Assembly: GCA_000442015.1 (NCBI GenBank)
Contig: KE561265.1
Span: forward strand, 1 to 64,000
DNA length: 64,000 bases
Source: Rozella allomycis CSF55
Lineage: Eukaryota
Direction of reading: 5' to 3'
In this document: piece by piece, positions 8,482-49,900 of the stretch
How positions within the stretch are numbered: the stretch's first letter is position 1
Layout: every line of letters starts with the position of its first letter
Program-made: the position numbers and the translations under genes
The notes under the pieces: model-generated
Seen by the model: the letters and a program-made list of their open reading frames with translations, nothing else
Databases searched by the model: none
Told to the model about the DNA's origin: nothing

Positions 8482-11400
8482 TTAATTATGAATTTTCAGA
8501 GATCTATCATAACTCTTTGTGGCATTTCTGTCAACATGATCCAAACCCAAATGGTCATTGACTCCAAATTCAACATTGTATAAAACTTCATCTTGGTTGA
8601 TAAAGAAATAATAGATTACCAGGGTTGAGATATTGAATGGAACCAAAAGTTATTCTAGCCAATTTAATTCTAGTTAAATCTTTTTCTGAAATATTTAATC
8701 TTTTCCCAATTCTTTCTTTAATTTGAGAACAGGGTTCATTTGGAAAGATTGGGAATTTAAAAGGGATTCCATGCATCTTTGAAGTGTCTTTATTGAAATG
8801 TTCCACAGAGACTAATTTAGCATTTGGAAGAGATTCATCAAGTGGAATTTCATGAGCATAAATTGTAGAGTGAGTAGAAAATAAAGAAACGGGATCATTT
8901 GGTTTAAATTCTCTTAAAATTCTACAATTAAAAGTATCGTAAATTCTTGGATTTTTGAAATCTAAATTTAAATCTTTAATTAATGAATTTTTAGAAACAA
9001 GAAATTTCTGGATTGAAGATTCTTTTAAATTTTCATCTAAAAGAATAATTTGAAATGAAATTTTAGATTCCAATTCCATTAGAGAAATATTCAACTTTTC
9101 ATAGAATAAATAATTTAAACCAGAAGAATTATCAACAGAAATCATTTCATTTAAACATAAATTCTTTCTTCTTGAAATTACTTTGAAATTTTTATAAAAT
9201 GGATCAAATTGATGAAATAAAATTCTTGTTGGATCGTGGCTTAGTGCAGCCCCTACTTTTTCAGAAACCTTAAATTAATATAACTGAAAAAGGAAATACC
9301 AAATCAAAAGAAAATTTTCTAGAAAGTTCGATTGAAATATCATTTTGATTATCTAATAAATCTTTTTGTTTTAGAATGACGAAAACTTTGTTTACAAGAT
9401 AATCAAAATGATGTGGGACAGTTAATTGCTTCAAGGGATCTAATTCACTTTGTTTGTGGAGATCAAAAGATAATTCTTTTTGAAAGATTAAAATATCACC
9501 AGTTGTTAATTCATGAGACTGAATTGTTCCCTTCAATGCTTTCTGTTCAATAAATGTTGGTTTAATTTCCTTTTGAATTAAAAGATTAAAAATACTTCAT
9601 AGACTCTAACAGGGATAGTCTCATCCAAGCCAATTTGTTGTTTGACTTGCAAAATAACATTTTCCATTTTATCAGAAAGTTTAAAAACAAAGCTACCAAC
9701 AAAATTTAATTTCTTTTCAACTGGATCATAAAACTTGACAAACAACAGCACATCATCTTTTTAAGTGTTAGAGTGAAGATTACCTAAATATAAAATCACA
9801 TAACATCTATTTACCTACATTTAAAGTCACATAACATCTACTTACCTATTGATAATTCTCTTTCGCCTTCTTTAATGTCTTCTTCAAGATACAAAAGAAT
9901 TTCATTTTTCCCAACTTGAGATAAAGTTTGATTAAAATCTGTTATGCATGAATCTGGTCTAAACGTGTTATTTTGTCTCTTGCAAAACAACCAAAGTCTA
10001 AAATTAGAATTGAAATTATAAATATTTTGGAAATGATCTATTATTTGAAAAAAATTAAAATTTTTGTTAAATCTAATTGGTGGCTTGGTTGAGAATAGAT
10101 CTGAAGAAATTTTTTCATTTAGATCTTTTTTTGTAATAAAATAAACATTTAATGAATTTAAAATTTCTTCTTTTTCTTTTCTCTTTTCCAATTCCAATTT
10201 CTTTTCATTTTCAAACAATTCCAACAATTTCAATGGAATATCTTTATTTGTTATTGGCTTCAATATTTCCATTCGTTGTGAATCTTTAATATAAACCAAC
10301 ATGTACGCATTCGTTATCTTTTTAATCTTTCTATTTTTATTATTAAATTCTCCACCAAAGTTTTCATCCAATGCTTTATTAAATAAACAAAACAAATTTA
10401 CCTTCTTCTGTTGAAACTTTAATTACTCTATCATCATCAAATTTAAACCATTCATTTTCTATTGTTGGTCTAATATAAGCCATGTAATGACCGCCATTCA
10501 CATCCCCTGAATGAACTAGAACCCCATGCAAATGATACATTTCATCCTCTGTTTCTTCATTCTTAAATTCCTTCAAATCAATCTCAAGTGGAAATTCATG
10601 TCTATCATTAATCTTAACCATCGCATCTCTTTCAAAATCATACTCAAATCTCTTCAATTGCAAATGAAGCACCGGCGGAAACTCCATAAACACAACCCCC
10701 TTCTTTGCATCTTGCAATCCATGTCCCTCTGCCATGTACTTATTCTCTCCATTCAACATCTCAACTTTAATATAATCCTTAAACGATTCCTCCAAATTCT
10801 TCATCCCCTTCACATTCAGTTGGATATCATAAAACTTTTCTTCTCTGCTAGACTCATAATTCACATTCACACACTTTATAAAACTCTTCATCTTTCCCAC
10901 AAACAACTTTTCTATCAACCCCTCAACCGGTGTCTTCTATTTCTGAAATTTACTAAATAGATTTACCTTGATTTTCTCTTCCAAACAATCTTGCAACACT
11001 CTATTAAACTCTTGGACATCATGCTGCATAAATGAATCCATCGTATCCCATCCAAACGATCGCGTCAAATCCTTCGTTCCAACTGCCCTGTCGCTGTTCT
11101 GCAAATTATAAAACACTCTCTGCAACGACAACGGAACACTCTTCTCTTCAACCTCTGTAGGTATCGAATAAACAGCCCTTCTAAATGCATTCGTAAAATA
11201 CAACGATTGCAACAACGAATTCATATAACACGTCGCTCCTTGGTTCATCAATCCTACATACCCTGTCATCTTTTTAGAATCCCATCTATTTCTTCACCCA
11301 CAATCTACTTACGTGGCAAAGTCATTCCAAAGTGTCTTGTAATCATCCCGATACACAGCAACATGCACATACAAATCCACTTTATCATCCTCTACCAACT

Positions 11401-46934: not shown

Positions 46935-49900
46935 ATGGAATCAACGAGTGTCAAAGTGGCGCTCCGGATCCGCCCTTTATCAACGAGCGAACGTCTGAGC
47001 GACTGTTCTGAATGTATATTTGTGCACCCTGACGAAGCGAACCAGGTTGTGTTGGGGCAGAACCGCAGTTTCACGTTTGACCGGGTGTTCCCTAGCGAGA
47101 GTGACCAGAGATATGTGTATGAGGGGGTAGTTGAAGCGATGGTGAAAAAGTTTTGCGAGGGGTATAATGTGACGATCATGGCGTATGGACAGACGTGCAG
47201 TGGGAAGAGTTATACGATGGGGACTAGTTTGGATGGGAATGAGGATGAAGATGCTGGGAGCCAAGGTATGGAGTTGCGTTTGTGGAGAGATAGGTAAGAT
47301 GATGGGAGGGGAATTGTGTAGGTAATTTGGAGGTGGGTGGTAGAGTAGGTGTTATATCGAGGGCGATTGATACGTTGTTTGGGATTGTTGGGGACAAGGA
47401 GCACGAGATGCGAGTTACGTTTGTGGAGCTGTATAATGAAGATATTGTTGATTTGTTTTCGCAAAAGAGCAAGTCGATCCAGATAAGGGAGGATGTGAAT
47501 GGCAGTATAGTGCTTGTTGGAGTGACTGAAGAGAATGTGAGGAATGCGAGTGAAGTGATAGAGTAAAATGAATTTGAAACAAAAAGTAGATTGATGAGAC
47601 GTGGATTGTTGAATCGGAGTACGGGGAGTACTGATATGAATTTGGTGTCATCGCGGTCGCATGCGATATTTAGTGTGTGTTTGAGACAGATGCGTGATGG
47701 AGTGAGTGTGATATCCAAGATGAATTTTGTTGATTTGGCAGGATCTGAGAGATTGAAGCGAACGAATGCGACTGGCGATCGGGCTAGAGAGTCAATTTCA
47801 ATCAACTCTGGACTGTTAGCACTTGGGAATGTGATCTCAGCGCTGGGAGATGAGAGCAGGAGGGGTGGACATGTGCCTTATAGAGATTCCAAGTTGACGC
47901 GACTGTTGCAGGTAACAATGATGAAGTTTGATGAAAGGTAAAAGAAGAGAGGGTGTTAATGAAAGGATTCACTTGGAGGCAATAGTCAGACGTTGATGAT
48001 GGCGTGTGTGTCACCTGCTGATAGTAATTTTATGGAGACGTTGAATACGCTAAAGTATGCGAATAGGGCTAGGAATATAAAGAACAAGGCGATGATTAAT
48101 GAGGAGAAGAGTGAGATTGAGCAGTTGAAGATGCAGATAAGGATGTTGAAGAATGAGGCAGGGAGGGAAAGGAATGTAGAGATTGAAAAGGAGATTAAAG
48201 AGATGAAATTGGCGTTGATTGAAAAGGATGAAAGATTGAAGAGAGTTTTGGAAGAGTTGAAAAAGGTTGAAATAGAAAAGGAGTGTTTGAAGTTGGTTCA
48301 TAAGGGAGAAGATGTAGAAGAAATGATAAAGAAGATTAAAGTTCATGTTGAGCCAATGATTAATGATTACATTAAAGAGATTCAAGAGTTGAAATTTATG
48401 CAAAGTAATGTGAAGAGTGCTAGTAGTAGGGATATGCAAAGCATTAGTAGTACTAGTAGAGATATAAGAAGCAGTGGAGACTCGCCAATTAATGGTAGTG
48501 GGGAATTACTTTTACAGAATAGTTTGATTAATAAGAGTTTAACTTTGAATAAATCTGAGAGTTTTAGTGGAGATTTGATTTCTAGTTTTGAAAGAATAAA
48601 TTTGAATGAGCAAGAGAATAAAGAGAGATTGGAGAGAGTTGAGAATGATATAAATTTAAAAGAGAGATTGGTAGAAAAGTTGAAATTAGATCAAGAAGAA
48701 TATGAAAAGATTATAATTGAAAACACCCGAAAGATGAATGACTTGATGCAAGTTAGAGAAGGCGATGATTTTAATGACAAGTATAACGACAAGGCTAGTC
48801 TCTACAGTCTCAGTACAAACTCTAACCTCAATAACCCTGTTAATAGAAACTTTAAAAGTAATTCATCGAATGCATTGGTTGAATTGAAAAAGAAACATCA
48901 ACAAGTAAAAAGAATAAACTTAAATTAAAAAGGATTTATTGATTGCAATGAAAAAGACAAAGGCAAATGAACAATTGATAGAATCAATGAAGAATTCAAT
49001 ACAAAATCTAAAGAGTGAGAAGATCAAATTAATGAATAAAATTAAGCAAGAAAATAATAAATTTAAATTAATTGAACAAAACAAAGAAATGGAAATTAAA
49101 AGATTGAAAAGAAAAGAAGCAAAACAAAATTCAGAAATTAAAAAATATTTCAGAAATTTAGAAATTAAAAATAATCTACTTGAAAGAAAAAATGAACAAG
49201 TTTTAAACTTTAAAAATAAATTAAAATTAATGTTGAATAGTAAAAAAAGAATTCGCAAAAATAATTTCAAACTAGAAGATTTTGAAGACTTGGGTGGTGA
49301 AAGGGTTAAGAGAGTAGAAAGTGATATTGAGAGAGTAGAAAGGGTAGAAGGTGATAATAAGAGAGTAGAAAGGATAATAGGTGATATTGAAAGGGATAAA
49401 CTTACTAGTGTCAGTGGGAGAGATAAACTCACTAGTGAGAGGGATAAGCCTACACTTAAACAATACCCTTTACCAATGTCTCTTTCATCAACAAATTTAT
49501 CGTTGGCTGATTTGTTGATTAATAATTTAATAAGAGAATTGGATGAATGCGTAAAGATTAAACAACAAGATCAATTAATGAATGAAATGATTAGATTCAG
49601 AGAAAGATTAGTTTCAGAAAGAAATAAATTACTTGATAAAATTTATAATGGAAAAAAAGATTTAAATCTAGAAAAAGATCTAGAAAAAGATTTGGAAATT
49701 TTAAATTCTCAAATTTCTTTTCTAACAAATGAAAAAATTAAAGAAATTCAAAATGAAATTTGTTTAAATTCTAATTATTCTTCTTTTGATGATTCTCTTT
49801 CTAATCTAATAAATATTCTCAAATCTCTATCTGTCAAAGAAGCTGATGAAATATTCAGATTCATCATTGAAGAAATTGTTAATCTCAAAATATCTGAAAA

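Follow-up and report, generated by a model that had tools for sequence, protein, structure and literature searches.

Four kinds of described system come close to the element reported here. In the accounts consulted, the recursive splicing of Drosophila and vertebrates proceeds through zero-nucleotide exons, the ratchet points, at which AG|GT lies inside a long intron and the donor is regenerated (PMC8605326, PMC6110457). In fungi, stwintrons and related complex intervening sequences are described as several U2-type units that are excised consecutively, and small duplications of splice elements have been suggested to give rise to them (PMC7138796). Intron gain by tandem genomic duplication of an AGGT segment, which leaves the mRNA unchanged, has also been described (PMC4974935, PMC3443670). 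Ultra-short introns of about 25 nt are reported from Paramecium and Nyctotherus (PMC5014332), and miniature introns from microsporidia (PMC6349667). The present element is a stack, that is, an intervening sequence composed of two or three abutting units of intron size, and four stacks were found in 64 kb of Rozella allomycis CSF55 DNA (positions 1 to 64,000 of contig KE561265.1; the window). They probably represent chains of mini-introns, as had been proposed by an earlier reading of the bare letters of this DNA (the sequence-only reading).

The stacks were located by a pattern search of both strands, as follows.

S1, 9757-9845, minus strand: 89 nt = 31+31+27, in the USP7-like deubiquitinase gene 8482-11928 (minus strand)
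S2, 12387-12441, plus strand: 55 nt = 29+26, the first interruption of the EFL1-like GTPase gene 12218-15190
S3, 47266-47348, plus strand: 83 nt = 28+28+27, in the kinesin gene starting at 46935
S4, 47912-47965, plus strand: 54 nt = 26+28, in the kinesin gene, between profile positions 289 and 290

The units of each stack are listed below, with percentiles that give the donor-plus-acceptor score of a unit against 118 single introns.

S1 unit 1, 9815-9845, minus strand: 31 nt, GTA..TAG, 71st percentile, near-copy of unit 2
S1 unit 2, 9784-9814, minus strand: 31 nt, 93rd percentile, near-copy of unit 1 (E-value 2.7e-4 within the window)
S1 unit 3, 9757-9783, minus strand: 27 nt, GTA..AAG, 60th percentile, sequence unrelated to units 1 and 2
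S2 unit 1, 12387-12415, plus strand: 29 nt, 83rd percentile
S2 unit 2, 12416-12441, plus strand: 26 nt, 64th percentile
S3 unit 1, 47266-47293, plus strand: 28 nt, G-rich, 20th percentile, interior copies exon 47412-47428
S3 unit 2, 47294-47321, plus strand: 28 nt, G-rich, 31st percentile
S3 unit 3, 47322-47348, plus strand: 27 nt, GTAA..TAG, 38th percentile, in frame and stop-free if kept
S4 unit 1, 47912-47937, plus strand: 26 nt, 93rd percentile
S4 unit 2, 47938-47965, plus strand: 28 nt, 95th percentile

All 10 units begin with GTA and finish with TAG or AAG, and all six internal joints read (T/A)AG|GTA. The exon upstream of the stack ends in AG in 4/4 cases, compared with 33 of the 118 single introns (p = 0.006). 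The scores of the units lie between the 20th and 95th percentiles, and among 1346 exonic GT..AG candidates no more than 1.1% reach the score of any unit. If a single unit were retained, the reading frame would be shifted or would meet a stop for nine of the 10 units, the exception being S3 unit 3. The sequence-only reading had divided the same four stacks exactly into units of 26-31 nt of the form GTA..(T/A)AG, with six AG|GTA joints and an AG-ending upstream exon at every stack, and this description proved correct throughout. Its expectation of serial splicing was likewise borne out at the level of sequence, each unit having the make-up of a complete intron with normal length and signal strength.

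Two of the four stacks sit in one kinesin gene. The motor region of this gene (47001-48000) has a coding strand with a G content of 0.33-0.37 and a C content of 0.11; the neighbouring DNA is free of this bias, and the mini-introns of the region share it.

The non-coding status of the stacks was determined by the continuity of Pfam profile positions across each of them. The kinesin profile runs from position 289 to 290 across S4 and from 96 to 102, in a loop, across S3. The GTP_EFTU profile stops at position 53 before S2 and stands at 71 after the following 22-aa exon, and the USP7_ICP0_bdg profile continues from about position 60 before S1 to 62 after it, position 61 being the split codon. Since the profile positions run on in this way, the comparison shows that none of the four stacks is coding and that all are insertions, in genes of the USP7-like, EFL1-like and kinesin types. 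If a whole stack were retained, a stop would be met within 2-10 codons at every stack. The position of S4 was ungapped in 70 of the 72 metagenome kinesin loci in which both flanking exons were aligned, and in the remaining two it is occupied by an ordinary intron, of 141 or 228 nt. The metagenome scan with the kinesin exon yielded 80 loci of diverse eukaryotes, and none of them has mini-introns at the stack positions. No match was obtained in a metagenome scan for relatives with a lineage-specific 858-aa protein, nor in a protein search with the exon downstream of S4.

A public partial kinesin protein of R. allomycis CSF55 (P0124; 7.7-kb contig of another assembly) is continuous across S4 and has 80 of the 83 nt of S3 removed, which leaves one additional valine at the S3 junction. 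Two of its residues differ in the loop before S3 (47239-47265).

The stacks were then set against all other introns of the window. A dynamic-programming gene finder was written for this DNA, with codon log-odds taken from long open reading frames (ORFs), introns of 15-200 nt and intron chains allowed in any phase; the census included gene models of at least 150 aa, and non-AG acceptors were permitted only for introns of 24-33 nt. Among the 140 introns modelled, 136 are 24-33 nt and 134 are 26-31 nt long, and those outside the latter range comprise one of 24 nt, one of 33 nt, one of 20 nt and three of 116-156 nt. The distribution has a sharp floor at 26 nt, with 38 introns of exactly this length, and no modelled intron (0/140) falls between 34 and 53 nt. 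The outliers proved to be artefacts. The 20-nt intron sits on a tandem duplication jointed by an N, the 116-nt "intron" (or false frameshift) at 42441-42556 lies on another N-jointed tandem duplication, and the "introns" of 153 and 156 nt bridge from a finished gene to an antisense or neighbouring ORF. The statement of the sequence-only reading that nearly all introns measure 24-35 nt was thus confirmed, and so was its claim that long interruptions are confined to the four stacks. The conclusion stands that they are the only real interruptions of more than 33 nt in the window.

Longer introns appeared at an earlier stage of modelling and were rejected. The introns of 41-150 nt in the first gene model were due to its flat length penalty and disappeared when position-weight and length terms were introduced; they consisted of two mini-introns and a short exon, or bridged one gene to the next. 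Gaps of 60-110 nt between gene models were also considered as long introns, and were found to be true intergenic spacers in which a stop is followed by a start.

Introns with a length divisible by three (3n introns) show no depletion, at 43 of 136. On retention, 39 of the 43 3n introns give an in-frame stop, compared with 63 of the 93 others (Fisher p = 0.005), and only 4/43 are free of one. The window therefore shows the narrow modal length and the stop-guarded 3n introns of an ultra-short-intron genome. No branch-site motif was found in the window introns, only A-richness at -7 to -4, and a search for a dispersed introner-like family found no further copies of the stack units in the window.

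The probability of such stacks arising by chance was estimated with a first-order Markov model derived from the interiors of the 118 single introns. At any one position, this model gives (T/A)AG|GTA a probability of 2.6e-4. The full divisibility of 54, 55, 83 and 89 nt into strict GTA..WAG units of 26-31 nt (W, A or T) has a chance probability of about 1e-18, and the corresponding value is 8e-13 under a loose rule (any GT..AG, 24-33 nt), the term contributed by the G-rich S3 being less extreme in its own composition than the Markov model gives. Within single introns, AGGT was encountered once in 2202 interior positions. The lengths of the internal exons (n = 112) gave a similar picture: five have a length of 0 and two a length of 1-39 nt, compared with geometric expectations of 0.49 and 17.6, respectively (Poisson p = 1.6e-4). 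Because of this exon-length distribution, the zero-length exons form a class of their own and are not the tail of the short exons. The stack structure is non-random, and chance is excluded.

The two internal exons of 1-39 nt are an N artefact and an unverified 11-nt micro-exon. The latter (24833-24843) is flanked by two 28-nt introns in a response-regulator gene model at 24805-24871 on the plus strand.

The sequence-only reading had further suggested that introns are limited to about 35 nt. Four unstacked introns of 41, 45, 50 and 56 nt in the refined model were apparent counter-cases to such a ceiling and were checked by Pfam continuity. Their shorter alternatives are as follows.

22116-22141, plus strand: HDAC-like intron, 26 nt, TG end; the next AG would give 41 nt
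26550-26576, plus strand: BUB1/Mad3-like intron, 27 nt, CG end; the next AG would give 45 nt
53549-53574, minus strand: intron of an ARM-repeat gene, 26 nt, TG end; the next AG would give 50 nt
4942-4970, plus strand: candidate intron, 29 nt, TG end (model only); the next AG would give 56 nt

In the BUB1/Mad3-like gene, the exon ends at profile position 57; the 27-nt model scores 54.9 bits and resumes at 59, position 58 being a split codon, whereas the 45-nt model resumes at 65 and scores 42 bits. For the HDAC-like gene, the 26-nt model resumes at profile position 231 (35.4 bits) and the 41-nt model at 237 (29 bits). The 26-nt model of the ARM-repeat gene gains a whole Arm repeat (38.6 versus 30.2 bits). 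The unstacked introns of 41, 45 and 50 nt were rejected, as they would delete conserved HDAC-like, BUB1/Mad3-like and ARM-repeat residues. These data suggest that the 3' end is cut at the modal distance even where no AG stands there, and that an AG further on goes unused; the evidence for such a ruler is Pfam continuity, and sequence errors at those three positions are still possible. Cuts at the modal distance strengthen the case for a length ceiling. As a result, the idea of a limit near 35 nt gained support from the empty range of 34-53 nt and from the 41-, 45- and 50-nt cases that turned out to be 26-27 nt, whereas an inability of the spliceosome itself can only be presumed from these lengths. 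It is conceivable, though less likely than not, that a hard ruler of about 26-31 nt picks the 3' end by distance, that sites much further apart do not pair, and that longer insertions persist only as chains of serially removed units, fed by whole-intron duplication; recursive splicing would then operate at its smallest possible scale.

The origin of the stacks could be traced in part. S1 units 1 and 2 are alike at 21 of 25 interior positions, and they score 17, whereas none of 6000 random intron pairs exceeded 10. Tandem Repeats Finder reported the same units with a period of 31, 2.2 copies and 89% matches. This similarity shows that a whole intron was duplicated in tandem, between the exon AG and the intron AG. 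On the same evidence the duplication is recent, and at least one stack was made by tandem duplication. At the other five joints, the similarity between units does not exceed that of random intron pairs, so that the two-copy pattern applies to only 1/6 joints. In S3, the interior of unit 1 matches an exon of the same kinesin gene at 16 of 17 positions (p of about 0.003 against shuffles; E-value 0.014).

47412-47428, plus strand: kinesin exon segment, source or copy of the S3 unit 1 interior

This match to a nearby exon indicates that local duplication also fed S3. Stacks would accordingly form locally, at least one by whole-intron tandem duplication and S3 with one unit from a copied exon segment nearby.

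Tandem duplications can also be produced by assembly, and the window contains such cases. Five of its 12 single Ns stand at the joint of repeats of 17-98 nt with 89-96% matches, and these N-marked duplications are most likely contig overlaps that were joined unmerged.

14308, 30175, 40597, 42533 and 59904: Ns at duplication joints

A fifth "stack" of 20+6+29 at 40556-40610 on the minus strand was rejected as one of these N-marked false duplications.

We consider it probable that each stack is a row of abutting, independent mini-introns that are excised in turn, every unit in a splicing reaction of its own. In the introns of the window, recognition would operate across the intron, through a start of GTA(A), A-richness in the stretch 4-7 nt from the end, a (T/A)AG end and a narrow length window, and each unit satisfies all of these requirements alone. 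A unit that is self-sufficient in this way would most likely undergo its own splicing reaction, and the reactions would be successive because two spliceosomes can hardly occupy neighbouring 28-nt units at once. As the upstream exon ends in AG, like every unit, the removal of a unit would recreate the AG|GTA donor context; if the downstream unit were removed first, a normal acceptor would be left. We infer separate removal, sequential removal and the order of removal alike from the layout of the units. The units of S2-S4 have diverged to background similarity with their joints and lengths intact, as expected if each unit is separately constrained. A comparison of one RNA run with 34001-54000 yielded no joints and nothing beyond spurious matches some 35 nt long, each with 4-5 mismatches, the run being without the locus.

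Several points weigh against this interpretation. The boundaries of the introns rest on our own gene finder and on Pfam continuity, not on transcripts, and the sample is a single 64-kb window with four stacks. The S3 units are the weakest-scoring and have an exon-like, G-rich composition. The tandem duplication in S1, which the sequence-only reading had not noticed, supplies an origin without the need for a ceiling, and the intact internal sites of such a young duplicate require no selection. In the related microsporidia, moreover, a 76-nt intron is reported to be spliced better than the miniature introns (PMC6349667), so that a reduced fungal-type spliceosome can take longer introns.

In the most serious alternative, each stack is removed in a single step as an intron of 54-89 nt through its outermost GTA and AG, the joints being unused relics of duplication. 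The multiples of the modal length would then reflect history, for example the duplication of modal introns and deletion that keeps introns minimal, and not a limit of the spliceosome. Fungal and microsporidian spliceosomes are described as handling introns of 50-90 nt (PMC6349667, PMC8476143), the outer sites of a stack are good by construction, and the origin alone accounts for one joint or more, since S1 units 1 and 2 derive from a recent tandem duplication. However, no unstacked intron exceeds 33 nt, with 0/140 at 34-53 nt, and the distant AGs of the 41-50-nt candidates seem to go unused. In S2-S4, all joints and unit lengths survive although the units have diverged to background similarity. 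Had removal in a single step been tolerated, intermediate lengths should have arisen by deletion. Single-step removal thus appears unlikely, although it deserves to be taken seriously.

It is rather improbable that some units are coding or alternatively spliced. This would concern above all S3 unit 3 (47322-47348), which, if kept in some transcripts or in all of them, would add nine residues to a surface loop of the kinesin, where the Pfam profile has its gap (96|102). The unit speaks against our preferred interpretation in being 27 nt long, in frame and stop-free alone; the gene model treats it as coding sequence, it has an exon-like composition (AT 0.52), and stop-free 3n introns are unusual here (4/43). 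On the other hand, it has GTAA and TAG ends, modal length and a score at the 38th percentile, and the public partial protein lacks 80 of the 83 nt of S3. Such a reading fits 1/10 units only, and the partial products of the other stacks are all frameshifted or stopped. That the stacks are assembly artefacts, overlapping contig ends joined unmerged into false tandem duplications, is scarcely credible. The five false duplications among 12 Ns, one of which mimics a stack, and the 89% likeness of S1 units 1 and 2 would point in this direction; yet no N lies within any of the four stacks, and the units of S2, S3 and S4, as well as S1 unit 3 with respect to units 1 and 2, are unrelated and thus are not duplicated overlaps, which excludes this origin for S2-S4. 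S1 without its second 31-nt copy, should that copy be false, would still be a stack of 31+27.

The window has a G+C content of 33% and uses the standard stop codons, as seen in 15 ORFs of 250 aa or more that terminate in TAA, TGA or TAG. Its genes are ordinary eukaryotic ones, including separase, MRS2 transporter, EF-like GTPase, response regulator, LRR, WD40, PPR and kinesin genes. A 379-aa exon is identical to the NCBI entry "elongation factor alpha-like protein" of Rozella allomycis CSF55 at 373 of 376 aligned residues, and the three mismatches all lie within the few residues preceding the exon start. This match identifies the window as nuclear DNA of Rozella allomycis, a cryptomycote that parasitises the water mould Allomyces. 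The intron density is consistent with the value of 2.5 introns per kb given for R. allomycis (PMC8476143). The genes are densely packed, with intergenic spacers of about 60-110 nt, as seen in the same-strand spacers 22510-22586, 23425-23495, 39668-39774 and 45123-45183. A coding-region tandem repeat at 49314-49390 (30 nt, in-frame, 2.6 copies, 82% matches) contains no N. Two tRNA genes were identified.

31475-31547, plus strand: tRNA gene, Rfam RF00005, 67.9 bits
37228-37300, minus strand: tRNA gene, Rfam RF00005, 53.1 bits

The portions of the ultra-short-intron literature that were covered (PMC5014332, PMC12862383, PMC13685798, PMC13644364) make no mention of abutting introns or recursive splicing. 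No literature on Rozella intron lengths was found in a search that did not extend to the Rozella genome paper or its supplements, so that an earlier mention is possible. If the preferred interpretation of serially removed mini-introns is correct, recursive splicing through zero-length exons would occur in a fungus-related parasite, for a reason opposite to that in animals: the machinery would accept only one short length, rather than face introns too long to find. The stacks would then be a natural system for length measurement by the spliceosome, and whole-intron duplication at an AG|GT boundary would be a simple route of intron multiplication. Should the window be typical, with its four stacks in 64 kb, a genome of about 12 Mb would contain several hundred. 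In annotating Rozella and comparable genomes, it should be borne in mind that an intron of some 55 or 85 nt may be a chain, and that one which seems to measure 40-56 nt may be a modal-length intron with a non-AG end, where a wrong model deletes conserved residues.

Compared with the systems described at the outset, the window resembles those with ultra-short introns in its narrow lengths, its minimal GTA..AG signals and the stop enrichment of its 3n introns. In-frame stops in 3n introns are a pattern linked to nonsense-mediated decay in Paramecium, whereas 3n introns themselves are, unlike in Paramecium, not depleted here. The stacks share with ratchet points the juxtaposed AG|GT within an intervening sequence, at 6/6 joints, and, at the level of sequence, the regenerated donor context. 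The hosts of ratchet points, however, extend over kilobases to hundreds of kilobases and are divided into long and unequal pieces, whereas the stacks measure 54-89 nt and consist of standard-size units that could be removed in either order. Stepwise removal at ratchet points is known from intermediates and lariats, while the Rozella stacks are known from their letters. With stwintrons the stacks have in common several intron units in one fungal intervening sequence and small duplications as a proposed origin. Identity with stwintrons was rejected, as every unit has its own intact GTA start, (T/A)AG end and normal length; stwintron units are nested, with a fixed order, whereas those of a stack are serial, each complete and none interrupting another. 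Finally, S1 units 1 and 2 are, as in intron gain by tandem duplication, adjacent copies bounded by AG|GT. In the classical model an exon is duplicated and a first intron is made, whereas here a whole intron appears to have been duplicated into a second, abutting one.

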